In this document: positions 1 through 12,480 of the stretch, one piece after another
How the letters are laid out: each line of letters begins with the position of its first letter
How positions within the stretch are numbered: position 1 is the stretch's first letter
Assembly (NCBI GenBank): GCA_041497675.1
Contig: JBGQGY010000110.1
Location: forward strand, 1 to 12,480
Length of the DNA: 12,480 nucleotides
Reading direction: 5' to 3'
Origin: a bacterium
GTDB taxonomy: Bacteria; Sysuimicrobiota; Sysuimicrobiia; Sysuimicrobiales; Humicultoraceae
Position numbers and translations under genes: made by a program
Notes under the pieces: generated by a model
Databases searched by the model: none
Seen by the model: the letters and a program-made list of their open reading frames with translations, nothing else
Told to the model about the DNA's origin: nothing

Positions 1-1
1 A

Positions 2-1594
2 GAGGCCGGCGTGGTCGGCGAGACGGTGCGCGCCGAATTCGTCGTCACGGTCGATGGAACCGTGGAACGGCGCCCCGAGGGCACCGTGAACCCACGCCTG
101 GCTACCGGGGAGATCGAGGTACGGGCCAAGTCGGTGAACGTGGTCTCAGCGGCCCTGACGCCGCCGTTTTCCCCGGGTGATGAAGGGGTCGTGGACGAGG
201 CGCTGCGCCTGAAGTATCGGTTCCTGGACCTGCGCCGGCCCAAGATGTTTCGCAACCTCTTGCTGCGTCATCGCGCCAGTATGGCCGTGCGGGAGAGCCT
301 CGACCGGCTCGGATTTGTGGATGTCGAGACCCCGTTGCTGATCCGGAGTACGCCCGAGGGCGCCCGCGACTTTATTGTGCCCAGCCGGCTGCAGCCCGGT
401 CGATTCTACGCGCTGCCCCAGTCGCCGCAGTTGTTGAAGCAGCTGTTGATGGTCGCCGGCGTCGATCGGTATTTTCAGATCGCCCGGTGTTTCCGCGATG
501 AGGATCTGCGGGCGGACCGGCAGCCGGAATTCACCCAAATCGACATCGAGATGTCGTTTGTCGATCAGGACTCGATCCTGCAGGTCACGGAGGAGATGGT
601 GGCCGCCGTTGTTCGCCGCGTGCTCGACGTCGAGATCACGCGGCCTTTTCCGCGCATCTCGTACGCCGACGCCATGCTCCGTTACGGATCCGACAAGCCT
701 GACCTGCGGTTTGATCTGCCGATCACCGATCTGACCGATCTGGCGGAGGCCAGCGGGGTCGAACGGTTTCGGGCCGCCGCGGCGGGTGGCGGGGTCCTGC
801 GCGGTCTGCGGCTCCCGGGGGCGGCGGGGATGAGCCGTCGGGACGTGGACGCGTTGATCGCGTCCGCTCAGGCTGCGGGGGCGGAAGGTCTGGCGACACT
901 CGCCCTCACGACCGACGGGCCAAAGGGATCGGTGGCCCGGCATCTCACCGACGGCGCGCGCGCGCACATCGCCGCGCGCACCGTCGCGAAGGAAGGTGAC
1001 CTCGTGCTGTTCGTCGCAGGCCCGGACACCGTTGTCGCTTCAGCGCTGGGCCGTCTGCGTCGCGATCTGGCCGAGCGTCTGAATCTGCTGCCGGCCGGCG
1101 GCGCGATGCGGTTTCTCTGGGTGCTGGAGTTTCCATTGTTGGAGCATGACGCTGAGCGGGGGCGCTATCTCGCAGTCCACCATCCCTTCACGGCGCCGAT
1201 GCATGAAGACCGGTCGCTGTTGGAGACGGCGCCGCTGCGTGTTCGCGCCACGGCGCACGACCTCGTGTTGAACGGGGTCGAACTCGGTGGCGGCAGCGTC
1301 CGCATCCACGAGCGTGGCCTGCAAGAGCAGATGTTTCAGCTCCTGGGCATCGGTCCCGAGCGCGCGCAGGAACGCTTCGGCTTCCTGCTCGACGCGCTAC
1401 AGTACGGCGCGCCGCCCCACGGCGGTATCGCGCTCGGCCTCGACCGGTTCGTCATGCTGCTCGCAGGCGAATCGACGATCCGCGAGGTGATCGCCTTCCC
1501 AAAGACGGCCAGCGCCGCGGATCTGCTCATGGGCGCCCCCGGCCCCGTTGATCCCGACCTGCTTCGGGAAGCGCATATCGCCGTTGCGGAGTAG
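2..1594 (+). CDS. aspS: Aspartate--tRNA ligase, bacterial type with GAD insertion; 5'-truncated by the window edge
   Basis: Recognisable AspRS motifs: NPRLATGEIE, LRLKYRFLDLRR, STPEGARDF, YALPQSPQ, motif 2 CFRDEDLRADRQPEFTQIDIEMSF, HHPFTAP, ELGGGSVRIH and motif 3 GAPPHGGIALGLDR. The frame is open from base 2, so the GTG at 11 is not the true start. Stop TAG at 1592-1594. Confidence 0.97.
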   Translation, partial: EAGVVGETVRAEFVVTVDGTVERRPEGTVNPRLATGEIEVRAKSVNVVSAALTPPFSPGDEGVVDEALRLKYRFLDLRRPKMFRNLLLRHRASMAVRESLDRLGFVDVETPLLIRSTPEGARDFIVPSRLQPGRFYALPQSPQLLKQLLMVAGVDRYFQIARCFRDEDLRADRQPEFTQIDIEMSFVDQDSILQVTEEMVAAVVRRVLDVEITRPFPRISYADAMLRYGSDKPDLRFDLPITDLTDLAEASGVERFRAAAAGGGVLRGLRLPGAAGMSRRDVDALIASAQAAGAEGLATLALTTDGPKGSVARHLTDGARAHIAARTVAKEGDLVLFVAGPDTVVASALGRLRRDLAERLNLLPAGGAMRFLWVLEFPLLEHDAERGRYLAVHHPFTAPMHEDRSLLETAPLRVRATAHDLVLNGVELGGGSVRIHERGLQEQMFQLLGIGPERAQERFGFLLDALQYGAPPHGGIALGLDRFVMLLAGESTIREVIAFPKTASAADLLMGAPGPVDPDLLREAHIAVAE

Positions 1595-1613
1595 CGGAGG
1601 AAAGTGCTAGCAT
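1584..1613 (+). promoter_or_regulatory. Putative sigma70/SigA promoter for the 6S RNA
   Basis: TTGCGG (1584-1589), an 18-nt spacer, then extended -10 TGcTAGCAT (1605-1613), about 15 nt upstream of the 6S closing stem. Confidence 0.5.
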
Positions 1614-1628
1614 GTGAGTCACATAAGG

Positions 1629-1814
1629 GTTCTCTGCCGTGTGCGAGGCGGGCTGATAGCTCCGATCCAATGGCTACGTCCCGGGAGCCTGGCTCCAGTC
1701 GCCACGAGGCATACCGACAGTACGTTCGCCGGCAGCCCAAGCGGCCGGGGAGGCACCCACCTTGCGAGAGCGCAGGGTTCGGGAGCTTTCAGTTCGTACG
1801 GCGCGGTGGAGAAC
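1629..1814 (+). ncRNA. ssrS: 6S RNA (SsrS), about 186 nt
   Basis: Closing stem GTTCTCTGCCGTGT (1629-1642) pairs with GCGCGGTGGAGAAC (1801-1814). GCTGATAGCTCC (1652-1663) pairs with GGAGCTTTCAGT (1782-1793). It carries the GGGAGCC and GGCACCCACC..GCGAGAGCG..GGGTTC elements typical of Bacillota-type 6S RNA. Its position between aspS and rarA matches the known ssrS synteny. Confidence 0.88.
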
Positions 1815-1822
1815 GAGTGACA

Positions 1823-1857
1823 CGAGACGGCCACAGGGATGACCTGCGGCCGTCTCG
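1823..1857 (+). terminator. Strong stem-loop directly 3' of the 6S RNA (terminator or processing hairpin, no U-tract)
   Basis: CGAGACGGCC-a-CAGG-(gatga)-CCTG-c-GGCCGTCTCG: a 14-bp stem with one mismatch. Confidence 0.5.
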
Positions 1858-1919
1858 CACGTCTGGCGGCGTCCCATCGGCGGCGCCGCTTCGTGCGACG
1901 ATGAAACGGGGGGCTGGGG

Positions 1920-3299
1920 ATGTCGCTCTTCGAGCCGGGCGCGCACGATCTCTCCACGGCGCCGCTTGCCGCGCGCCTGCGGCCACAGTCGCTGGACGAG
2001 TTTATCGGCCAGGATCACCTGATCGGCGACGGCCGGGCGCTACGTGCAGCCATCGAGGGCGACCACGTGCACAGCCTGATCCTCTGGGGCCCGCCGGGCA
2101 CCGGTAAAACCTCGCTGGCCCTGCTGATCGCCGGAAAGACGCGGTCACACGTCGCGCAGGTGAACGCCGTGACGGCCGGCGTGGCCGACCTCAAGCGCGT
2201 GATCGCCGACGCCCGCGATCGCCGCACGTTCCACCGGCAGCGTACGCTGCTGATCATCGACGAGATCCACCGTTTCAACAAGGCGCAGCAGGACGTGCTC
2301 CTGCCCCACGTCGAGGACGGCACGGTCATCTTGATCGGCGCCACCACCGAGAATCCGTTCTATGAAGTGAATGCGACGCTCGTCTCGCGGTCGACCGTGG
2401 CACAGCTCGAGCCGTTGAGCGATGAGGCGATCCGCGCGATTGTCTCGCGAGCGCTCACCGACCCCCGCGGCCTGGCCGACCGGGGTCTCGACGTGGACGC
2501 CGACGCGATGGACTACCTGGTCGGGGTCAGCAACGGCGACGCCCGTACGGCGCTCAACGCCCTCGAGGCCGCGGCGATCGCGGCGCCAGAGACCGGCGGC
2601 CGCCGGCACGTGACGATTGGCGTGGCGCGCGACGCCAGCCAACACCGCGTGCTGCGCTACGACCGCGAGGGCGACCAGCACTATGACATGATCTCGGCGT
2701 TCATCAAGAGCATGCGCGGTTCCGACCCCGACGCGGCCGTGTACTGGCTCGCCCGCATGCTCGCTGCGGGCGAAGATGCGCGGTACATCGCCCGGCGCAT
2801 GGTGGTGCACGCCGCCGAGGATGTCGGGATGGCCGACCCGATGGCGCTGCTCGTAGCGACGGCCGCCGCCCACGCGGTGGAGTATGTCGGCCTGCCCGAG
2901 GCGCGCATCCCCATGGCCGAAGCGGCCATCTACATCGCGACCGCGCCGAAGAGCAACGCGGTGGTCAGGGCCATCGGCGAGGCCATGCACGATGTGCGGG
3001 AGCGGCGCGCGGATCCGGTGCCACGATCCCTGCGAGACTTGAGTCATCCCCAAGCCGCCACGCGGCTTGGCCACGGTGTCGGGTATCAGTACCCCCACGA
3101 TTTTCCGGAGGGATTCGTCCGACAGTCCTACCGGCCCGACGGTGTCCAGGGGCGGCGATACTACCGGCCAACCACGCATGGCGTGGAGGCGGATGTGCGG
3201 CGGCGACTCGACGCGTGGTGGGGAACAGAGTCCGAGACAGTCTCGAGCGAGGAGCCGTCTCCGGAATCCGGCGGGAGCGAGGGCCGCCGCAGCGGTTAG
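1920..3299 (+). CDS. rarA: Replication-associated recombination protein A (RarA/MgsA AAA+ ATPase), 459 aa
   Basis: PLAARLRPQSLDEFIGQDHL, Walker A WGPPGTGKT, Walker B IIDEIHRFNKAQQD, GATTENP, HYDMISAFIKSMRGSDPDAA, EDVGMADP, APKSN, GYQYPHD. Confidence 0.96.
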   Translation: MSLFEPGAHDLSTAPLAARLRPQSLDEFIGQDHLIGDGRALRAAIEGDHVHSLILWGPPGTGKTSLALLIAGKTRSHVAQVNAVTAGVADLKRVIADARDRRTFHRQRTLLIIDEIHRFNKAQQDVLLPHVEDGTVILIGATTENPFYEVNATLVSRSTVAQLEPLSDEAIRAIVSRALTDPRGLADRGLDVDADAMDYLVGVSNGDARTALNALEAAAIAAPETGGRRHVTIGVARDASQHRVLRYDREGDQHYDMISAFIKSMRGSDPDAAVYWLARMLAAGEDARYIARRMVVHAAEDVGMADPMALLVATAAAHAVEYVGLPEARIPMAEAAIYIATAPKSNAVVRAIGEAMHDVRERRADPVPRSLRDLSHPQAATRLGHGVGYQYPHDFPEGFVRQSYRPDGVQGRRYYRPTTHGVEADVRRRLDAWWGTESETVSSEEPSPESGGSEGRRSG

Positions 3300-3318
3300 C
3301 GCCTGCCCGCGAGCGGCT

Positions 3319-3347
3319 TTGACACTCTTGAACCTAGTTGCTACGAT
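3319..3347 (+). promoter_or_regulatory. sigma70/SigA promoter for mnmA-ytxH-cca-small ORF
   Basis: Perfect TTGACA (3319-3324), exactly 17 nt, then TACGAT (3342-3347) with an extended -10 TG at 3339-3340. It sits in an AT-richer intergenic stretch. Confidence 0.8.
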
Positions 3348-3380
3348 TGATAGGATAGTCGAACATTTTGTGGGGGCACG

Positions 3381-4472
3381 ATGGCGAAGATCGCCGTCGC
3401 GATGAGCGGCGGGGTAGACAGCGCTGTGGCGGCGGCCCTGCTCACCGAGCAGGACCATGACGTTGTTGGTCTGACCATGAACCTGTGGCCGTCGTGGTTG
3501 ACCGAACCGGCCGCCGGCAGTCAGACGTGCTGCGGCGTCGGTGCGATCGACGACGCCCGCGCTGTGGCCCGCACGCTGGGGATCCCGCACTACGTGCTCA
3601 ACCTACGCGAGGCCTTCGAGCGCGCCGTCATTGACTACTTCTGCGACGAGTATGCGCGCGGCCGCACGCCCAACCCGTGCATTGCGTGCAACCAGTCGAT
3701 CAAGTTCAAGGTGCTGTTGAAGAAGGTGATCGACCTGGGGTGCGATGCCCTGGCGACCGGGCACTACGCCCGGATCGGCCGTGATCCGGTGACCGACCGG
3801 TTCGTGTTGCTGCGTGCGGCCGACGCTGCCAAAGATCAGTCCTACGTCCTGTACGCGCTGACCCAAGAGCAGCTGGCGCGGCTGCAATTCCCGGTTGGGG
3901 CGTACCGCAAGCCCGACATCCGCGCGATCGCGCGCCGGGCGAATCTCGCGGTCGCTGAAAAGCCCGACAGCCAGGAGATCTGTTTTGTGCCGCAGGGGCA
4001 CTACGGTGACCTGGTGGCCTCGCGGCGGCCGGAGGCGGCGCGTCCCGGGCCAATCATCGATCGATCGGGCGCGGTGCTGGGCACGCACGCGGGGATCGCG
4101 CGCTACACCGTGGGGCAGCGCCGTGGCCTGGCCATCGCGCGAGGGGAGCCCACGTACGTGATCGGCATCGACCCGGAACAGAACGCGGTGATCGTAGGGA
4201 GCCAGACCGATCTCATGCGTGGCCGCGTCACCGTGGGGCGTGTTAACTGGATCGTGCCACCACCGCCGCCGGCGCTGGTCACTGCTCGAGTGCGGCACGC
4301 TGCGGTCGACGTACCCGCGGCGCTCGAAACACGTCCCGACGGGTATATCGATGTTGTATTCGCCGCGCCACAGCGGGCGGCAGCGCCCGGACAGGCGGTC
4401 GCCTTTTATGACGGCGAGCGCGTCCTGGGCGGCGGCATCATCGAATCTGATCTCAAGGAGGCTGGATCATGA
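3381..4472 (+). CDS. mnmA: tRNA-specific 2-thiouridylase MnmA (C-type), 363 aa
   Basis: PP-loop AMSGGVDS, TPNPCIACN, ATGHYAR, KDQSY, KPDSQEICF, YTVGQRRGL, PGQAVAFY..LGGG. Confidence 0.97.
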   Translation: MAKIAVAMSGGVDSAVAAALLTEQDHDVVGLTMNLWPSWLTEPAAGSQTCCGVGAIDDARAVARTLGIPHYVLNLREAFERAVIDYFCDEYARGRTPNPCIACNQSIKFKVLLKKVIDLGCDALATGHYARIGRDPVTDRFVLLRAADAAKDQSYVLYALTQEQLARLQFPVGAYRKPDIRAIARRANLAVAEKPDSQEICFVPQGHYGDLVASRRPEAARPGPIIDRSGAVLGTHAGIARYTVGQRRGLAIARGEPTYVIGIDPEQNAVIVGSQTDLMRGRVTVGRVNWIVPPPPPALVTARVRHAAVDVPAALETRPDGYIDVVFAAPQRAAAPGQAVAFYDGERVLGGGIIESDLKEAGS

Positions 4473-4801
4473 GCAATCGAACCGACTTCGTCGCCGGCTT
4501 CATCCTCGGCGGGTTGCTGGGGACCGCGATGGCGCTGCTGTTTGCCCCGCGGCCCGGCGAGGAGACGAGAGAGCGGCTTCTGGAGTCCGCGGAGGAATTG
4601 CGCGAGCGGGCCCGCGAGCGCGCCGACGATGTGGTGCGGAAAGTTCGCGACGCCACTGACGATCTTTCGCAGCGCGGCCGGACGACGCTCGACGAAGGCG
4701 CGGCCAAATTGCGCGACGCCATCGATCGCGGCCGCGAGACGTTCGAAGAGCGCACGCGCGGCAAGCGGGGTCCTGGCCAGGAGCAGCGCCCGGAAGGCTA
4801 A
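4469..4801 (+). CDS. YtxH-domain protein (N-terminal membrane anchor plus charged helical tail), 110 aa
   Basis: FVAGFILGGLLGTAMALLFAPRPGEETRERL matches the YtxH signature. SD AAGGAGG upstream; ATGA overlap with the mnmA stop. Confidence 0.9.
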   Translation: MSNRTDFVAGFILGGLLGTAMALLFAPRPGEETRERLLESAEELRERARERADDVVRKVRDATDDLSQRGRTTLDEGAAKLRDAIDRGRETFEERTRGKRGPGQEQRPEG

Positions 4802-4802
4802 C

Positions 4803-6167
4803 ACGGCGCTGCTGCCCCGGCTTCCCGAAGACCTCTCACCAGGGCTGGACATCATCCGGCGGCTTCGCGACGCCGGGTGGGATGCGTATCTCGTCGGGGG
4901 AGTTGTCCGCGACCTGTTGTTGGGGCGCGAACCCCACGACCTCGATATCGTCACGTCGGCGCGCCCTGAGTCGGTCACCGATCTGTTTCCCCACACCGTG
5001 CTCACCGGCGCCGAGTTTGGCGTCGTGACCGTCGTCGTCGAGGGGCGGACGTTTCAGGTTGCGACGTTCCGCCGCGAAGGACCGTACCTCGACGGACGGC
5101 GGCCAACCTACGTCGAGTATGCAGATTTGCGCGAAGACGTGCTCCGCCGTGATTTTACCGTGAACGCCCTCGTGTACGATCCGATCGCCGACCGCGTGCT
5201 CGACTTCACGGGTGGCCTTGCCGATCTGGAGCGCCGGACGCTCCGGACTGTTGGCGAACCGGCTGCCCGGTTTGGCGAGGACAGGCTGCGGCTGCTTCGG
5301 GCGGTGCGGTTTGCGACCGAACTCCAGTTTTCCATTGAGCCCTCGACCCTTGACGCGATCCGCACGCTCGCGCCGACCATTGCCGGGGTGAGCGGCGAGC
5401 GGATCCGCGACGAGGTGCTGCGACTGTTGGTCGCGCCGGACCGCGCCGCCGGCGTGCGATTACTGCAGTCGAGCGGTTTGTTGGGGATCGTCCTGCCTGA
5501 AGTGGCCGCCATGGATGGTGTCCCGCAACCTCCGGAGTTCCATCCGGAGGGGGACGTCCTCACCCACACGTGTCTGGCGCTGCAGCACCTCAACACTCCG
5601 ACGCCCGTGCTGGCCCTGGCCACCTTGCTGCACGACGTGGGGAAGCCGGCCACCTTGACGGTCGCCGACCGCATCCGGTTTCATGGGCATGCCGATGTTG
5701 GCGCGCAGATGACAGATCAAATCTGCCAACGCCTGCGTATGCCGGTCGCCGACATGCGTGCCGTCGTCACCCTCGTGCGCGATCATCTGAGGATCGGCGA
5801 TCTGCTGCAGATGCGGCCCGGAAAGGCGACGCGATTCCTGCGGCGGCCGGACTTTGCCGACCTGTTGGAACTGCACCGGGCGGATTGTCTGGCCAGTCAC
5901 GGGGATCTGAGCATCTATCAGTGGGCTGCGGCCGCGCGCCAGGCGCTCGACGCGGCCGGGCCGCCGCCCCCGCGATGTATCACCGGCGACGATCTGATCG
6001 CGCTTGGGTACGCGCCGGGACCGCGATTTGCGGAGATGCTGGAGGCCGCGGACGTCGCGCAGGCCGAGGGTGAGATCCGGAGCGCCGAAGAGGGCCGGGC
6101 TTGGATTCTTGTGCACTTCCCGGCAGGAGGCGAGTCGCAGCGCGTGGAACCGCCACCGCATGTCTGA
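4803..6167 (+). CDS. cca: Class II CCA tRNA nucleotidyltransferase with HD domain; start uncertain (ACG 4803 or CTG 4809/4812), about 454 aa
   Basis: YLVGGVVRDLLLG..DLD, flexible loop TFRREGPYLDGRRP, EDVLRRDFTVNAL, template motif FGEDRLRLLRA, VSGERI, and HD domain FHPEGDVLTH..LLHDVGK..FHGH. The first ~87 aa of the ORF-track product overlap ytxH out of frame and look non-coding. Confidence 0.9.
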   Translation, partial: TALLPRLPEDLSPGLDIIRRLRDAGWDAYLVGGVVRDLLLGREPHDLDIVTSARPESVTDLFPHTVLTGAEFGVVTVVVEGRTFQVATFRREGPYLDGRRPTYVEYADLREDVLRRDFTVNALVYDPIADRVLDFTGGLADLERRTLRTVGEPAARFGEDRLRLLRAVRFATELQFSIEPSTLDAIRTLAPTIAGVSGERIRDEVLRLLVAPDRAAGVRLLQSSGLLGIVLPEVAAMDGVPQPPEFHPEGDVLTHTCLALQHLNTPTPVLALATLLHDVGKPATLTVADRIRFHGHADVGAQMTDQICQRLRMPVADMRAVVTLVRDHLRIGDLLQMRPGKATRFLRRPDFADLLELHRADCLASHGDLSIYQWAAAARQALDAAGPPPPRCITGDDLIALGYAPGPRFAEMLEAADVAQAEGEIRSAEEGRAWILVHFPAGGESQRVEPPPHV

Positions 6168-6300
6168 GCGTGACCTTGTAGGGTTCTTTCTGTGGGCCAT
6201 GGCGTTCATGATCGCCGTTGGGGGGATGATTCTCCAGATGTGGCCCAGCTTGGTCGGCTTTGTGGACCGGACCTTCCTCAACCCGCCGCGCCGTCGGTAG
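6160..6300 (+). CDS. Small single-pass membrane protein, 46 aa (MSERDLVGFFLWAMAFMIAVGGMILQMWPSLVGFVDRTFLNPPRRR)
   Basis: ATG 6160 overlaps the cca stop (ATGTCTGA). About 20 consecutive hydrophobic residues and a basic C-terminus. It fills the gap up to the hairpin at 6330. No clear SD. Confidence 0.6.
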   Translation: MSERDLVGFFLWAMAFMIAVGGMILQMWPSLVGFVDRTFLNPPRRR

Positions 6301-6329
6301 GACGACAGCGGTCGTGGCGGACCGTAGGC

Positions 6330-6376
6330 CGAAACCGTGAAGGCCCGCCCCGAGTGGGCGGGCCTTCACGGTTTCG
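6330..6376. terminator. Perfect 21-bp inverted repeat between convergent genes; likely bidirectional terminator, possibly REP-like
   Basis: CGAAACCGTGAAGGCCCGCCC (6330-6350), loop CGAGT, GGGCGGGCCTTCACGGTTTCG (6356-6376). Confidence 0.75.
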
Positions 6377-6395
6377 ATGCGCCGGAATGCGGGTC

Positions 6396-7526
6396 TTACT
6401 CGCCTTTGCCTCCAACGGCTGCGGGCGCCCGCATGGTGAACTCTTTTTCCAGCCGGTTGAGTTTGACGACGATACCGCCGTACTCCAGCTCCGACATGGG
6501 CAGCATGGCCGGTTCGAAGAAGCCCTGGCGGCGCATGTCCATGGCCTTGACCACCGTCTGATCCCGGACGTGATGCCAGAACGGATCGCCAAACAGGTCG
6601 ATCGGCTGGGTCAGCCGGCCGTCGTGAATCGAGAAGCCTAACGCCGACACCATTGGACAGCAGAAGTACGTTGAGGCCGGCGTGTTGATCGGCACCGGCA
6701 TTAGCGGGAGGTTGTGGCTTCCCCGCGTGTCGCCGGCCACGAAGGGGGCCAGCGCAAACGGCGGACCGAATTCCTCCGTCGCTGGGAAGATCCGTTGGGT
6801 CCGCACGACGGCCACCGGATCGTCCTTCCCGACGTACCGGCCCGCAATATTACGCAGCCGGCTGGTCGCCACCGCGACCGCCTGCTCATTGGGATGTTTC
6901 CGCGACCAGATGGACTCGATGACGTACCGGTGCGTGTCGCGCAGCAGCGCCGCGATGTCATAGAGGCGCTCGGGAGCGTCCAGCGCGATGATGCGGTCGC
7001 CCTCGGTGTGGTCGACGTCCATGATCACGAACTTGAAGCCTTCGTGCAACGCGTCGGAGAGCAGCAAACCGGGTGAATACATCGGATCGGCGAACGACAA
7101 GTACAGGGGGAGGTTGAATGCGCCCGGCTCGGTCTTGTCCGCCGCCAGGATCATGATCGCCTCGTTGGGCCGTTCGTCGAACTCGATCTCCGCAGACCCC
7201 GGGCCCAATCCCTTGACGTTGCCGGAGAAGGCATCCTTCAAGAGGTCCTGCCCGGCGCCATAGAGTCCCTGGCGTTTCGCGACCTCCGTGCCGGCGCGGA
7301 ACGCATCCCAAGCGAGTTCGTGCACCTTCGGGTGCCCGACACCGTGGGCGTGGGTCATGATCAGGCACACGTCGTCGCCGGTGTGGCAGACGGTGCTGTC
7401 GATGAGTAGGGTGCCGGTGACGCCGTGGACGCGCTCGCGAACCAAGTCCATCAGCTCCCGGCTGGGAACCGTATGACCTCCCACAGCCCCAATATCCGCC
7501 TTGATGACGCTGACCGTTACCCGCAT
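6396..7526 (-). CDS. fbp: Bifunctional fructose-1,6-bisphosphate aldolase/phosphatase (class V FBPase), 376 aa
   Basis: SVIKADIGAVGGH, GDD..LIMTH, GLYGAGQDLLKDAFSGNVKGLGPG, ADKTEPGAFNLPLY, Schiff-base loop YVGKDDP, RGSH..PLMPV and ELEY. SD-like GGGGG/AGGA upstream. Confidence 0.96.
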   Translation of the reverse strand: MRVTVSVIKADIGAVGGHTVPSRELMDLVRERVHGVTGTLLIDSTVCHTGDDVCLIMTHAHGVGHPKVHELAWDAFRAGTEVAKRQGLYGAGQDLLKDAFSGNVKGLGPGSAEIEFDERPNEAIMILAADKTEPGAFNLPLYLSFADPMYSPGLLLSDALHEGFKFVIMDVDHTEGDRIIALDAPERLYDIAALLRDTHRYVIESIWSRKHPNEQAVAVATSRLRNIAGRYVGKDDPVAVVRTQRIFPATEEFGPPFALAPFVAGDTRGSHNLPLMPVPINTPASTYFCCPMVSALGFSIHDGRLTQPIDLFGDPFWHHVRDQTVVKAMDMRRQGFFEPAMLPMSELEYGGIVVKLNRLEKEFTMRAPAAVGGKGE

Positions 7527-7597
7527 GCGTCCTGTCCCCCTTGTAGCCGAGTTACCGGTTCTTCGCTATTGACAGTGATGCCCCTTCTCTCCTTTTA

Positions 7598-7606
7598 TTA
7601 TCCACA
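7598..7606 (+). promoter_or_regulatory. Consensus DnaA box
   Basis: Exact TTATCCACA in the divergent fbp/parA intergenic region. It overlaps a possible minus-strand -10 (GATAAT, 7597-7602). Confidence 0.5.
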
Positions 7607-7629
7607 AGCGGGCAGACTTCCATCCTCCA

Positions 7630-7657
7630 AAAGGATATTGTTTGCAGAGGGTCGAAC
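7630..7657 (+). promoter_or_regulatory. SigH-like promoter upstream of parA
   Basis: AAAGGATAT-N12-GTCGAAC versus the Bacillus SigH consensus RNAGGAWWW-N11/12-RNNGAAT (one mismatch). Confidence 0.5.
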
Positions 7658-7660
7658 AGC

Positions 7661-7693
7661 GGGGGAACTGCCCGGTGAAAGCCGGGCTCCCCC
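7661..7693 (+). other. GNRA-capped hairpin in the putative parA 5' UTR
   Basis: GGGGGA-(act bulge)-GCCCGG-t-GAAA-g-CCGGGC-TCCCCC, ending 8 nt before the SD GAGGTG (7702-7707). Confidence 0.55.
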
Positions 7694-7717
7694 CGGAAAC
7701 TGAGGTGGCACGGGCAG

Positions 7718-8533
7718 GTGAGCGCTGAGGCGCTGGTCATCGGGTTGGTGAACCAAAAAGGCGGCTGTGGCAAGACCACCACGGCCGTCAATCTGAGCGC
7801 CTCCCTCGCCGCCGCTGGTCACCAGACCCTGCTCGTTGATTTGGATCCGCAGGCGAATGCCAGCGTGAGTCTGGGCATCGATCCTGCAGCCCTCGAGCGA
7901 ACCGTCTACCATGTCATTGTCGACCCTAACCCGGATGACGGGCTGCCGATGGCCTCCGTCATCCGCAAGACGAGGGTCAAGCGGTTGGATGTCGCGCCCT
8001 CATCGATCGACCTGGCCGCCGCCGAACTCGAGCTGGCGGCGCGGATCGGTCGCGAGACGACCCTCCGAAAGCGTCTCGCCCCGCTGCGGTCGCAGTATGA
8101 TTTCATCCTGATCGACACGCCGCCGTCGCTCGGGTTGCTCACGCTCAACGCCCTCGTGGCCTGCGACGGTATCATCATTCCGATCCAGACGCACTACTAC
8201 GCGCTGCTGGGCATGCGGCAGCTGTTGCGGACGCTGAAGATGGTGCGTGACGAGGTCGGCCATCAGGTCGAGATTATCGGCGTGCTGCCGACCATGTATG
8301 ATTCGCGGACGACGATCAGCAGAGAGATCCTCCACGGCATCCACGACTTCTTCCCCAACAAGGTCTACCAGACGACCATCCACTTCAACATCAAGCTGGT
8401 CGAGTCGTCCATGGCCGGCGTGCCGCTGTTCATCAAGAATCCGGACTCGCGGGGCGCGAAGGAATACACGAATCTGGCTCAAGAGGTGATCGGATATGCC
8501 AAACGGGCGCGAGGAGCTCCGGCGAGGCGTTAG
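7718..8533 (+). CDS. parA: ParA/Soj-family ATPase (type Ib, no N-terminal HTH), 271 aa
   Basis: Deviant Walker A NQKGGCGKTTT, DLDPQANAS, Walker B ILIDTPPSLGLLTLNAL, TMYDSRT. GTG start with SD GAGGTG. No parB follows. Confidence 0.93.
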   Translation: MSAEALVIGLVNQKGGCGKTTTAVNLSASLAAAGHQTLLVDLDPQANASVSLGIDPAALERTVYHVIVDPNPDDGLPMASVIRKTRVKRLDVAPSSIDLAAAELELAARIGRETTLRKRLAPLRSQYDFILIDTPPSLGLLTLNALVACDGIIIPIQTHYYALLGMRQLLRTLKMVRDEVGHQVEIIGVLPTMYDSRTTISREILHGIHDFFPNKVYQTTIHFNIKLVESSMAGVPLFIKNPDSRGAKEYTNLAQEVIGYAKRARGAPARR

Positions 8534-8903
8534 AGATCTGATCGAGATCGCGTCCCGCGAGATGGAAGCGCTGGAAGACCCGACGCCCCCGGCGCCGCCG
8601 GTAGCGGAGGCCGCGACGCGTGACTCCAGGCCGATCCTCCGCCTGGTGCGCGATGTCGCCCCGGTGCCTGCCGAGATGCTCGCACCGGCCCACGGCCCCA
8701 CCGGCGCTCCGGACATCATTGCCGGCCCGTCAAAGAAGGGCGTCTGCGCGGCCTACTACGTCAGTCGGAAGTGCTGGGAAGTGGCGGACGCGTACTGCAA
8801 CCAAGCGCTGCACGTCTGCATGCTGCGAGAGTGCCCGGTGTACCATCTCAACCGCGAGGAACTGGAGCAGCGATTCGCCCGGAAGTTCTCCCATCTCTGG
8901 TAG
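8496..8903 (+). CDS. Hypothetical ParA-partner protein with Cys-rich (CW-type) C-terminal module, 135 aa
   Basis: SD GAGGTGAT at 8483-8490 lies inside parA, and the start overlaps parA by 38 nt. N-terminal LRRGVRDLI, a Pro/Ala linker, C-x8-CW-x6-C-x6-C-x4-C-x3-H, ending FSHLW. Confidence 0.82.
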   Translation: MPNGREELRRGVRDLIEIASREMEALEDPTPPAPPVAEAATRDSRPILRLVRDVAPVPAEMLAPAHGPTGAPDIIAGPSKKGVCAAYYVSRKCWEVADAYCNQALHVCMLRECPVYHLNREELEQRFARKFSHLW

Positions 8904-8911
8904 ACCGCAGG

Positions 8912-9547
8912 CTATTGGCGGAGGTCGAGGTTCAGCAGTTCCCTCAGATCGGAGATCCAGGCCCACGGGACGACGCCGCGCGATTCGACCTCGGCGCGCC
9001 GTTCCCCAAACCCGATGAACCGCACGCCCGCGCCCTCGGCGGCGAGGCCGTCGATCCATGAGTCACCGACCATGTACGCGTCGTGCAACGGGCCCAGCCG
9101 CTCGACGATCAAGCGGATGCCGGATGGATCGGGTTTCAACGCGGGGACGTCGTCGCGTGTCATGGCCAGATCCAACAGGGGTGTCAGCGCCATCGCCTGC
9201 AGCAGCCGGTGCGTCGCCGGACGGGCGTTGTTCGTCAGCAGCGCCAGCCGGAACCCCCGTGCCGCTAGATGCTCGAGCACTTCGCGGGCATGCGGCATGG
9301 CGGTGGCGCCGGCGAGCCCTTCGGCCTCATAGCGCTCGATCGTGGCCCACAGCGATGGAGCCAGATCCGGCGTGGCCGCCGCTGCCTGATCGACGAGGTC
9401 GCGGAGCGGATGGCGCATCAACTCCTCGCGCGCGGCAGGAAGGGGCGATCGGGCTGCCCATTGGTCGATCAGGCTGGCCCGGAGCTCGGCGAAGTTGATC
9501 CGCGAGTCGATGAGCGTGTTGTCGAAGTCGAAGATGATCGCGATCAT
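8912..9547 (-). CDS. HAD-superfamily hydrolase (phosphoglycolate phosphatase-like), 211 aa
   Basis: Motif I IFDFDNTL, motif II LTNN, motif III KPDP, motif IV VGDSWID. ATG at 9547 has AGGA about 8 nt upstream and is preferred over the ORF-track GTG at 9577. Confidence 0.9.
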   Translation of the reverse strand: MIAIIFDFDNTLIDSRINFAELRASLIDQWAARSPLPAAREELMRHPLRDLVDQAAAATPDLAPSLWATIERYEAEGLAGATAMPHAREVLEHLAARGFRLALLTNNARPATHRLLQAMALTPLLDLAMTRDDVPALKPDPSGIRLIVERLGPLHDAYMVGDSWIDGLAAEGAGVRFIGFGERRAEVESRGVVPWAWISDLRELLNLDLRQ

Positions 9548-9618
9548 CGTGACGTCCTGACATTCCATCTTTGTCACCGGGTTCCTGGTGGGACCACGCC
9601 GCGCGGAGAGGGAGTACG

Positions 9619-10923
9619 ATGACCACGCCGCAGCCGACGACCATCGAGATGCTGGGGCAGCACATCGGACAGGAGGTCGAACTGTCCGGTTGGCTGGCGA
9701 ACCGTCGTAGCAGCGGCAAGATCCACTTCCTGCTGCTCCGCGACGGCACAGGCACGGTGCAGGCGGTGATGGGCCGGCAGGACGTCCCCGAGGACACCTT
9801 TGCCGCGGCCGATCACCTCCCGCAAGAGAGCAGCCTGATCCTCACCGGCGTCGTACGCGCCGATCCACGCGCCCCCAGCGGCGTCGAGGTGACCGTCCGG
9901 TCGATCCGCGTGATCCAGCAGGCCGAAGCGTATCCCATTACGCCGAAGGAGCACGGGGTCGAGTTTCTCATGGATCACCGGCATCTGTGGCTCCGCAGCC
10001 GGCGCCAGCACGCGATCCTGAGGGTGCGGGCCGAGGTCATCCGCGCGATGACCGACTACCTCGACGACCACGGGTATCTGCGCGTGGACGCGCCGATCCT
10101 GACGCCGGCCGCGGTGGAGGGGACCACGACGCTGTTTGCCACCGAGTACTTCGATCTGGGAACCGCGTATCTGACCCAATCCGGTCAGTTGTACAACGAG
10201 GCGGCTGCGATGGCGTTTGGCCGCGTGTACTGCTTCGGACCGACGTTTCGTGCAGAGAAGAGCAAGACCCGCCGGCACTTGATCGAGTTCTGGATGCTGG
10301 AACCCGAAGCCGCGTTCCTCGATCTCAACGGCTACATGACGCTGGCCGAGGGGTTTGTCGCGTACGTCGTGGGCCGGGTCTTAGAGCGGTGCCGGGTCGA
10401 GCTGCGCACGGTGGAGCGCGACGTCGCACCGCTCGAGCGCGTCCAGGCGCCGTTTCCCCGCATCTCGTACGACGAGGCGCTGCGGGTGCTCGCCGAACAG
10501 GGCAAACCGGTGACCTGGGGAGACGATCTCGGCGGTGATGAGGAGACGGTTGTGAGCAACGCATTTGACCGGCCCGTCTTCGTGCACCGGTACCCCACGC
10601 AGTGCAAGGCGTTCTATATGCAACCCGATCCACAGCGGCCCGAAGTGGTGCTCGGCGCCGATCTCCTGGCGCCGGAGGGCTACGGTGAGATCATCGGCGG
10701 CGGTCAGCGCATCGACGACCTCGATCTGCTCCGCCGGCGACTGGCCGAACACCGCCTGCCGGAGGAGGTCTACCGGTGGTACTTGGACCTCCGCCGGTAC
10801 GGGTCGGTGCCGCATTCGGGGTTCGGCATCGGGATCGAGCGCACTGTGGCCTGGATCTGTGGGATCGACCATATCCGCGAGACGATTCCGTTCCCGAGGC
10901 TGCTGAACCGACTGTACCCGTAG
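9619..10923 (+). CDS. asnS: Asparagine--tRNA ligase, 434 aa
   Basis: OB-fold [36 protein letters not shown], motif 2 [63 protein letters not shown] before ATG 9619. Confidence 0.96.
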
Positions 10924-11004
10924 TCGGTGCCCAGGGATGGTCCAATGAGTGCAGGAGTCGAGTTACGCGGATGGAGAAGCCCGATGTGAGCATGACGCAA
11001 AGAA

Positions 11005-12480
11005 GTGTCCGCGACAGCCTGCTCAGGTCCTGGCGGGGTTTCTGTCATGGTCATAGTGGCTCTACTCGGTCTCACCGGACTCGCGGTGGTACTCTTCGGT
11101 GCCGGTGGGGTCATTGGGCTTCACGTTGATTCGGCGCAATACATCGAAGCGGCCCGAAATCTGCTGAAAGGCTATGGACTGAGTCAGGTGTTCGAGACCG
11201 GACCGGATCCGGTGACTGTGTCGGCACCACTCTACCCTGCGATGCTCGCGATGCTCGGAGTCTTCGGTCTCGATCCCTTGGACGGGGCAAAGTGGTTGAA
11301 TGCTTTCCTCTTTGGCGCCAATATTAGCCTCGTCGGATACGCCATTTATCGGAGCACCAATTCGAGGGATGGCTGCCGTCCTGGGAGCATTCCTCGTTCT
11401 TGCCTCTCCCCACGTACTCTATGTCCACATGATGGCCTTGACGGAGCCGCCGTTCATTTTTTTCGCTATGTTAGGAGTATTTCTGGTCGCAACGTCCGCG
11501 GAAAATCCCAGGGCGCTTTACGCGGCCGCCGCGGCCGCCGCATTGGCCTGGCTTGCGCGATACCCCGGTCTGGCGGTCGTAATCGCTGGGACCGCGGGGA
11601 TTCTCGTGCTGCGAACGCACGCTCATGGTCGTAGAATTCGAGATGCGGCCATGTTTGCCGTGCTGCCGTTGCTCCCGGTGACGCTCTGGTTCCTCAGGAA
11701 TGTCTTGGTCGCTCACGTTGTGACGGGGAGGGGGACCGGATTCCATCCGATCACGGTTGAGCAAATCAAGCCTGCCCTGCTAGCGTACTCGTCGTGGCTG
11801 GTTCCCGAGACGCTTCCAGCCTCGTTCGGCATCTTCAGGAACATCTTCTTGATTGCAGTCATCGGGAGCTTTGTGGGTCTAAGCATTGCACTACTGCGCG
11901 CCAACCGGCGGGCGCACAGAACCGAACCTGCCGGTCCTCTTTTGTCGAGATTCTCCACACTGCTGTTATTGTATGTCTCCTTCTACAGTGGGTTTTTGGT
12001 CCTTGCCGCGTCCCTCAGTGGTTTCTATAAGGCCCCCCTGGGGTTTCGGTATCAGGTGCCGATTTACGTGGCTTTGACGGTTCTCATCGTCTCCCAGGGT
12101 CACTATCTTTTGCGTGGCGCACGTACTCGCCTCCTTCGAGTGGCCACGCTGGCATTCTGCGTCGCTTTCGCGGCATCGTACTCCATTCGGGGAGCAGTAT
12201 GGGTGATGAACAGTCATAGCCGGGGGCTGGGATATGCTAGCAGGATGTGGAGACAGTCCGAGACCATCACAATGGTTAAGGCGCTCCCTCCTGACATTTG
12301 GGTTTATTCGAATATTCCCGAAGTAATCTATCTGCTGACCGGGAGGCCGTCTGGCTCCCTTCCTGGAAAAACGGAGAGCGAATATCGCTCGGAATTGGCC
12401 CGGATCGATCGAAGACTCCGGAACCGAGAAGTGCTGCTTGTGTATTTTCGTGAGGTTCCAGGCCGTGACTTTCCAGGCCG
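11005..12480 (+). pseudogene. Frameshifted multi-pass membrane glycosyltransferase (GT-C/PMT/ArnT-like); 3'-truncated by the window
   Basis: Frame 1 (11005 to ~11367): a TM helix, then DSAQYIEAARNLLKGYG..PLYPAMLA..WLN. Frame 2 is stop-free from 11300 to the window end and reads MAAVLGAFLVLASPHVLYVHMMALTEPPFIFF..ARYPG..WFLRN..RYQVP..VYSNIPE, with many TM segments. The two parts join by a +1 shift near 11360-11368. The start is uncertain, and a sequencing error cannot be excluded. Confidence 0.7.

Follow-up and report, generated by a model that had tools for sequence, protein, structure and literature searches.

A ParA-type ATPase gene overlapped by a gene for a cysteine-rich protein

ParA/MinD ATPases organise chromosomes, divisomes, carboxysomes, flagella and chemoreceptor arrays, and there are many orphan ParAs without a known partner or cargo. 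The window analysed here, a 12,480-nt stretch (contig JBGQGY010000110.1, positions 1 to 12,480) of a genome from the uncultured phylum Sysuimicrobiota (CSP1-3), carries the gene of an orphan ParA/Soj-type ATPase (parA) and, immediately downstream, a gene for a small cysteine-rich protein, which we refer to as the partner. An original prediction made from this DNA had described a Soj-like ATPase overlapped by a 135-residue gene with its Shine-Dalgarno sequence inside the parA 3' end, and the coordinates bear this out (Table 1), with the two reading frames sharing 38 nt and a GAGGTGA ribosome-binding site placed 6 nt ahead of the partner ATG. In the related loci that were compared GGAGGTGAT likewise precedes the partner start. 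The gene after the partner converges on the operon, which is therefore formed of two genes.

The ATPase matches the Pfam families AAA_31 (E 1.8e-57) and CbiA (4.4e-22), and its closest solved structure is that of Myxococcus xanthus ParA (8ray_B, 1.5e-59), with Thermus thermophilus Soj next. It contains a deviant Walker A motif with the signature lysine (KGGCGKTT, residues 14-21), which always reads KGGC[GA]KTT in the 58 ParA orthologues collected from related loci, the variable position being G in 42 and A in 16. The protein falls below every NCBIfam equivalog cut-off, MinD included, and is not a MinD (TIGR01968, 51.7 bits against a cut-off of 212.9); likewise its tail, ending in AKRARGAPARR, is basic and not the amphipathic membrane-targeting helix of MinD type. 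At the place of Cys17 in the Walker A motif (window 7766-7768) both the Soj of the same genome and M. xanthus ParA have valine.

A canonical rsmG-soj-spo0J locus is found on a separate contig (C33) of the same genome, which is 98.6% complete in 272 contigs, and this locus holds the only ParB_N domain of that genome. The window ParA is 48% identical to the Soj encoded there. A separate parAB, which the original prediction had suggested looking for, thus exists in this genome, and ParB_N is present in 58 of the 60 phylum genomes that are at least 90% complete. The genome contains three further ParA/MinD-like genes, one of which is a CpaE-like receiver-ATPase adjoining a T2SSE ATPase (Pfam), while the second, a P-loop gene adjoining a NusG-like gene, is read as a tyrosine-kinase-like ATPase, and the third, a 371-residue frame on contig C36, is read as Mrp-like from its match pattern without a Pfam scan. 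With these three assigned elsewhere, Soj and the window ParA are the only two ParA-type ATPases of the genome.

The partner is a new family, conserved beside parA in one phylum

Neither Pfam nor NCBIfam has a family that the partner matches, even at E<=10, in agreement with the earlier statement that it lacks the CTPase box and helix-turn-helix of ParB, and a search of its profile against PDB sequences gave one match at E 0.33, which is not meaningful. Homologues were found with a word-indexed search (186 at E<=0.01, all unnamed or annotated as 'hypothetical'), and a profile search of 1.84 billion representative proteins returned only 67 matches at E<=0.001, with 48 at E<=1e-30. These searches place the partner in no characterised unrelated family. 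Using the ESM Atlas with the whole partner we recovered its own cluster (0.96), followed by unnamed Chloroflexota clusters (0.80 and 0.77), which serve as leads only. A literature search combining ParA-like, cysteine-rich and partner protein found no description of such a pair.

Within the GTDB phylum Sysuimicrobiota the partner is present in 91 of 94 genomes, a tally that takes in two unpublished genomes (G017 and G024), in 54 of 54 high-quality genomes and in 31 of 31 genera, and completeness is 65-72% in the three genomes that do not have it. The window's own genome holds a single copy. We also collected 61 partner loci from a species-genome collection, the titles of which are Candidatus Sysuimicrobiota (CSP1-3) lineages or placeholder labels, and in 60 of these a ParA orthologue (66-94% identical; tblastn with the window ParA) ends at or overlaps the partner start. 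The lone exception (L059) starts at a contig end, and the N-terminal half that it lacks, with ParA, is located on a second contig of that assembly (L067). The flanks of the 61 loci include cca (48), a HAD hydrolase (43), asnS (36) and a fructose bisphosphatase gene (35), in an arrangement that varies. The neighbourhood survey thus confirms that the partner is conserved beside parA, and as judged from these searches it is a new family restricted to a single uncultured phylum, in which it is universal. Our best reading of this distribution is of a two-gene operon inherited vertically throughout Sysuimicrobiota, alongside canonical Soj/Spo0J.

The partner N-terminus is in register with the ParB peptide motif

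Four parts had been recognised in the partner, namely an N-terminal LRRGVRDLI, a Pro/Ala-rich linker, a five-cysteine module and a terminal RFARKFSHLW, and all four proved to be real and conserved across 129 aligned homologues, from which all per-residue counts below are taken. Partner proteins are 130-369 aa in length. An AlphaFold2 model of the partner shows a helix at residues 3-27 (predicted local distance difference test score, pLDDT, 76-91), a disordered region at 31-77 and a folded region at 80-135. Within the N-terminal motif R5, L8, G11 and R13 are invariant (129/129), R9 and R10 are kept in 127 and 128 sequences, respectively, and E6 and E7 are conserved in at least 95%, with conservation extending to I16, S20 and E22. 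Over the bases that the two genes share, conservation is far stronger in the partner frame than in the ParA tail; given the variability of the latter, and partner conservation that continues past the overlap, the overlap is not the cause of the N-terminal conservation.

We compared this motif with the N-termini of ParB from the same phylum, which follow L-G-[RK]-G-L-[GAS]-[AS]-L-[IFL] in all 29 loci counted, after the removal of two that come from unpublished genomes; the ParB of the window's own genome begins ...KALGRGLAALIPG. The partner sequence L8-R9-R10-G11-[VIL]12-R13-x-[LF]15-I16 (129 sequences) is in the same register as the phylum ParB motif (L-G-R-G-L-G-A-L-I), and five of the nine positions are common to both, including the central arginine and all four large hydrophobic residues. 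These are the central arginine and hydrophobic positions of the ParB peptide that, in the available part of a M. xanthus study (bioRxiv 10.1101/2025.03.14.642875), were critical. The conserved differences from phylum ParB are two arginines, which replace Gly at motif position 2 and Gly or Ala at position 6.

The available part of the same study (bioRxiv 10.1101/2025.03.14.642875) also places the ParB-peptide pocket of M. xanthus ParA, by nuclear magnetic resonance and mutagenesis, at L150, G151, L152 and L192. In the 8ray_B alignment (offset 19) these residues correspond to L138, G139, L140 and V180 of the window ParA, all of which are conserved in the orphan ParA alignment, so that the claim of a conserved, ParB-like N-terminal peptide has held on the side of the peptide and is matched by the pocket residues kept in the ATPase. 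E176, which adjoins the pocket in M. xanthus ParA, is Leu in the orphan ParAs (YYALLGM, against YYALEGL in Soj). It is plausible that the two arginine substitutions of the peptide and the substitutions round the orphan ParA pocket are specificity determinants. Furthermore, R238, through which M. xanthus ParA binds DNA, is K226 in the window ParA and near-invariant as such among the orphans, while the Soj of the same genome has Arg.

As a general principle, stated in the available part of a second study (bioRxiv 10.1101/2022.06.09.495121), partner proteins contact their ATPase through a charged N-terminus. A complex prediction with two ParA, two ATP and partner residues 1-35 scored 0.00, a result that speaks neither for nor against binding.

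The linker that follows is 39-283 aa long (median 57), is composed of 22% Pro and 19% Ala and is hypervariable, and its pLDDT of <50 accords with the disorder that had been expected for it. It nevertheless contains an island, R45-P-I-L-R-L-V-R52, of which each position is kept in 97 to 126 of the 129 sequences, and which is probably a binding motif for another protein. In one family of the phylum (f4; L060-L063) the partners are 329-369 aa in length with linkers of ~250 aa, and K/R-rich tracts lie just ahead of the cysteine module. These tracts may add DNA or nucleoid affinity.

The cysteine module has remote relatives in small CWE proteins

The module follows the pattern G-V-C84-x-A-Y-x5-C93-W-E-V-x2-A-x-C101-N-x-A-L-H-x-C108-x2-R-x-C113-P-V-Y, and its five cysteines are invariant (129/129). 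In the window the partner ends in ...RFARKFSHLW, with a terminal helix finishing in H133-L-W135, and W135 is found in 128 of 129 sequences and is Tyr once. The module is modelled as short helices throughout, with no strand, and has a pLDDT of 85-94 as part of the full-length model and of 84.1 in a model of the module by itself. The terminal Trp had been likened to that of McdB, an analogy that we find weak, as the residue (pLDDT about 87) lies within this confidently folded module and not in a free tail. Foldseek with the full partner model gave no match in the PDB, and a wide VIA-align search peaked at Z 3.1 for the full model (single-helix matches) and at 2.6 for the cysteine module alone, so that no fold was assigned, from which it does not follow that the fold is new. 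Likewise, the module had no usable match among the named clusters of the ESM Atlas.

The partner profile search did, on the other hand, yield four weak matches (E 1e-5 to 9e-5) to small proteins with the pattern C-W-E...C...C-x-A-Y-x5-C-W-E-V-x4-C-x6-C-x4-C-P-V-Y, here termed CWE proteins. Using hhalign, the partner module (45 sequences) aligned with five CWE proteins over 50 columns (98.4% probability, E 5.1e-15), and a direct homologue search with P0185 returned only 2 proteins. Five of 13 CWE proteins match NCBIfam NF045718 (two-CW domain), an 80-position model with seven Cys and two CW dipeptides, below its 35-bit cut-off (best 23.2 bits, E 6.7e-5). Partner and CWE proteins have C-x-AY-x5-CWEV-x4-C-x6-C-x4-CPVY in common, whereas the partner has the second CW half, with five rather than seven Cys and a single CW, and adds its own C-terminal helix ending HLW; it is also the only member found to be fused to a proposed ParA-binding peptide. 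The partner module is therefore probably a remote, truncated cousin of NF045718, keeping the second half and five Cys, and not a member as that family is defined. Our literature search found no paper using the term 'two-CW domain'.

Five invariant cysteines would be most simply explained by a metal or Fe-S centre. ParA was found near CWE proteins at none of 10 metagenome loci, and the neighbours scanned at CWE loci were two CheW genes with a methyl-accepting chemotaxis protein, an Fe/Mn superoxide dismutase with a multihaem cytochrome, DUF5714 and CobW. These signalling, redox and metal genes beside the relatives lend some indirect support to the idea of gating by metal or redox state.

A sigma-H-like element lies upstream of parA

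Ahead of parA the window contains AAAGGATAT (7630-7638), a 12-nt spacer and GTCGAACAG (7651-7659). We examined 58 parA upstream regions of 220 nt each and found a related element, AGGA[GTA]A..N..GGTCGAAC, also written AGGA[GTA]A[TAG]..N..G(G)GTCGAAC, at fixed spacing in 37-38 of them. In 7 loci the start codon lies exactly 7 nt past GTCGAAC, which is a distance as expected for the putative -10 element of a leaderless mRNA. The spacer of sigma-H promoters is 11-12 nt. The element fits the Bacillus subtilis sigma-H consensus, RNAGGAWWW / RNNGAATWW, as given in the available part of PMC8510167. A small upstream open reading frame (ORF) was also considered as a reading of the element and rejected, since it is the DNA that is conserved and not the frame or the peptide.

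The window's own genome encodes a SigH orthologue (L100, G000:C47:14217-14810; TIGR02859, 350.7 against 294.8 bits), and B. subtilis alone among 14 control genomes passes this model. SigH is above the cut-off in 31 of the 33 phylum genomes that are at least 95% complete (G017 counted), and a Spo0H-type SigH is thus near phylum-wide in a phylum outside the Firmicutes. No Spo0A over its cut-off was detected in the window's own genome. A position weight matrix scan of the same genome gave 6 matches of >14 bits compared with 0 in a reversed-genome control, and, the matches besides the parA site being weak or intragenic, no regulon could be defined in it. A second copy of the element, GGAGATCGTTTGCTATGGGTCGAACA, is located at G000:C89:12946-12981 (L099 2447-2482) and is identical to the window site at 21 of 26 positions; the ORFs on either side of it are both on the minus strand, and no plus-strand gene is evident downstream.

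Simple scans of the window for sigma-70 promoters and terminators gave 0 sites, and a hairpin in the parA 5' untranslated region (7658-7725; -32 kcal/mol) is not significant, with a z of only -1.12. RNA-library contigs from four runs map to parts of parA, and one of these (8381-8531) spans the partner start, with DNA carry-over possible in either case; the gaps between these contigs, and contig starts near 7675-7693, are no evidence for a transcript end.

A proposed second ParA-type system with a cognate adaptor

We read the pair as a second, dedicated ParA-type positioning ATPase with its own activating adaptor, and we give this reading about an even chance. By analogy with the general workings of ParA/MinD proteins, an ATP-bound dimer of the orphan ParA would sit on the nucleoid, where the ParB-like N-terminal peptide of the partner would bind and activate it, and the conserved arginines by which this peptide differs from the ParB motif would prevent cross-talk between the two systems. 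The disordered Pro/Ala linker with its RPILRLVR island would tether the peptide to the five-cysteine module, which most likely carries a metal or iron-sulfur centre and would either attach the cargo or report redox or metal state. Any such cargo would have to be something universal in the phylum. The original prediction had named chemotaxis arrays and carboxysomes as precedents. The available part of PMC11604079 reports flagella and chemotaxis from two of the five families of the phylum and pathways of autotrophy from three. Being restricted to some families, none of flagella, chemotaxis and the Calvin cycle can be the cargo of a phylum-universal pair. A more ambitious version, in which this would be the first ParA/MinD system with a cofactor-bearing sensor partner, with redox or metal state gating positioning on the nucleoid, in a phylum-defining pair under a sigma-H-type promoter and in cells with SigH and without Spo0A or Min, we consider unlikely.

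Comparison with chromosomal Soj/ParB supports the kinship of the ATPase, which is Soj-type with M. xanthus ParA as its best solved relative, and of the peptide, which shares the aliphatic and Arg pattern of ParB and faces a pocket whose residues are kept. In contrast, the partner is without the ParB/Srx CTPase domain (PF02195, GxxRxxA box), the helix-turn-helix and the dimerisation domain of ParB/Spo0J, its motif has two extra conserved Arg, and the rest of the protein consists of a disordered linker and the five-cysteine module. Nor does the window contain parS-like sites, with 0 found at up to 3 mismatches from what we take to be the parS consensus, as had been noticed before for a parS palindrome.

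McdB is a small, largely disordered protein with a charged N-terminus and an invariant C-terminal Trp, and is linked to McdA and carboxysomes. The present pair is like McdAB in that its ParA-type ATPase gene precedes one for a partner that is likewise small and for the most part disordered, with charges at the N-terminus and Trp as the last residue. It differs in that the flanks have no carboxysome or microcompartment genes (a genome-wide shell-protein search was not made), the Trp is inside the folded cysteine module, and the window ParA keeps the signature lysine; moreover the pair is phylum-universal, whereas the Calvin cycle is found in only some families, as far as the available part of PMC11604079 goes. 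With the ATPase partners of the PomXYZ and A/D type, in which a short, positively charged N-terminal peptide activates the cognate ATPase (available part of 10.1101/2022.06.09.495121), the partner may by analogy share this mode of activation, but no sequence relationship to PomXYZ was detected and the partner here is much smaller.

The adaptor reading was strengthened on every point that sequence can test, but several points weigh against it or against parts of it. The flanks are syntenic housekeeping genes (cca, fructose bisphosphate (FBP) aldolase/phosphatase, HAD hydrolase and asnS) with no linked cargo gene and nothing that hints at a cargo. The contact between ParA and partner is one that we infer from sequence comparison, and the DNA-binding Arg of ParA is Lys in this protein, a change that keeps the charge; the nucleoid is a putative matrix. 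The partner has no NF045718 match even at E<=10 and has 5 rather than 7 Cys, and a cofactor can therefore be ascribed to it only by extrapolation, while His106 is found in 122 and His133 in 124 of the 129 sequences, short of strict invariance. Finally, it is by similarity to the consensus that the operon is probably under a sigma-H-type promoter, to which an operator is the alternative, and 20 or 21 of the 58 upstream regions are without the element within 220 nt.

The pair could instead be a second DNA-partition system of type Ib, like ParF/ParG, with the cysteine module as a zinc-type DNA-binding domain on a centromere or operator and a DNA locus as cargo. The available accounts of ParF/ParG describe a small partner downstream of the ATPase with a flexible Arg-bearing N-terminal tail, and the order of the two genes here, with the Arg-bearing N-terminus of the partner, matches the type Ib layout as we understand it; the net positive charge of the cysteine module and the K/R-rich tracts ahead of it in the long-linker forms would also suit DNA binding, and the conserved element upstream of parA could be an operator instead of a promoter. 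This pair is however chromosomal and phylum-wide, its ATPase is Soj-like, and the partner matches no DNA-binding family or fold, ribbon-helix-helix families included. A repeat search of 7400-9000 showed no repeat arrays, palindromes or iterons standing out, parS is absent from the window, and the upstream element is promoter-like in its geometry, with the start codon 7 nt away in 7 loci. As the only relatives of the module are signalling-type CWE/two-CW-like proteins, and a canonical ParABS system is already present, we find this alternative improbable.

We rate no higher a more specific proposal within the adaptor reading, namely a MipZ- or PomXYZ-like regulator of the division site, linked to the nucleoid, whose partner would bind a divisome component. 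MinC_C was detected in 0 of 60 phylum genomes at least 90% complete, and the window's own genome has neither a MinD that reaches the curated cut-off (212.9 bits; best score 74.6) nor a DivIVA over its cut-off; these absences make division-site placement an attractive guess, if a circumstantial one. The window ParA and Soj being the only ParA-type ATPases of the genome, and the phylum-wide presence of the pair, as expected of a housekeeping role, point the same way. Many bacteria without Min, however, are also without such a pair, the flanks show no linkage to division genes, and no similarity to MipZ partners, PomX or PomY was detected, which leaves the proposal a rather doubtful one.

The partner might instead be a redox- or metal-responsive regulator that switches or titrates the orphan ParA, and not a cargo adaptor, in which case its N-terminal helix may mainly self-associate. 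The relatives of its cysteine module are stand-alone or signalling-associated and not structural adaptors, its N-terminal helix is long (residues 3-27), and all 58 ParA orthologues have Cys for the usual Val in Walker A, which, alongside a partner rich in cysteines, is a hint of thiol or redox chemistry. Direct activation of the ATPase in adaptor style is nonetheless favoured by the ParB register of the motif and by translational coupling, and the linker island and terminal HLW suggest further binding partners, and we hold a purely regulatory role to be distinctly improbable. Mere adjacency of a functionally unrelated small ORF with a coincidental likeness to the ParB peptide, which the lack of a usable answer from complex prediction leaves some room for in that interaction and cargo are deduced, is highly improbable given adjacency or overlap in 60 of 61 loci and 31 genera while flanks vary, and a motif that is invariant and in ParB register.

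The locus offers an orphan ParA with a clear and universally conserved partner of a new family, whose domain logic can be read from the sequence, with a ParB-like peptide as the proposed activator joined through a disordered tether to a module of cysteines. With two arginine substitutions and the accompanying pocket changes it may be a natural case of cross-talk avoidance between two ParA systems in one cell, and it could provide a first way into the function of the uncharacterised cysteine modules of two-CW-like type as well as a cell-biology marker for a widespread uncultured phylum.

Other features of the window

The remaining genes of the window have housekeeping roles (Table 1) and include a 6S RNA gene, which was identified as a full-length model match with Rfam, and rarA and mnmA, which were named from their sequences.

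Table 1. Coordinates of genes, RNA and sequence motifs in the 12,480-nt window (empty cells, no entry).
Feature	Position	Strand	Remarks
Bipartite motif upstream of parA	7630-7659	+	Putative sigma-H-like promoter
Orphan ParA/Soj-type ATPase, 271 aa	7718-8533	+	GTG 7718 to TAG 8531-8533
Partner ribosome-binding site GAGGTGA	8483-8489	+	Read from sequence; inside parA 3' end, 6 nt ahead of ATG
Partner gene, 135 aa	8496-8903	+	ATG 8496 to TAG 8901-8903
Partner N-terminal motif R5-E-E-L-R-R-G-V-R-D-L-I16	8508-8543	+	Proposed ParA-binding/activating helix
LRRGVRDLI	8517-8543	+	Within partner N-terminus
Linker island R45-P-I-L-R-L-V-R52	8628-8651	+	Conserved within disordered linker
C-terminal five-cysteine module and helix ending HLW	8727-8900	+	C84, C93-W94, C101, C108, C113-P114
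aspS	2-1594		Housekeeping gene
6S/SsrS RNA gene	1628-1816	+	Between aspS and rarA; Rfam RF00013, 59.5 bits against gathering threshold 46.4
rarA	1920-3299
mnmA	3381-4472
CCA-adding enzyme (cca)	ends 6167
Class V FBP aldolase/phosphatase	6396-7526	minus
HAD hydrolase	8912-9577	minus
asnS	9571-10923

In the long ORF of the CCA-adding enzyme the PolyA_pol domain starts at residue 115, after ~110 Arg/Ala-rich residues (window 4542-4870). Other frames overlap this Arg/Ala-rich stretch, and the true start of the gene is therefore probably further downstream.

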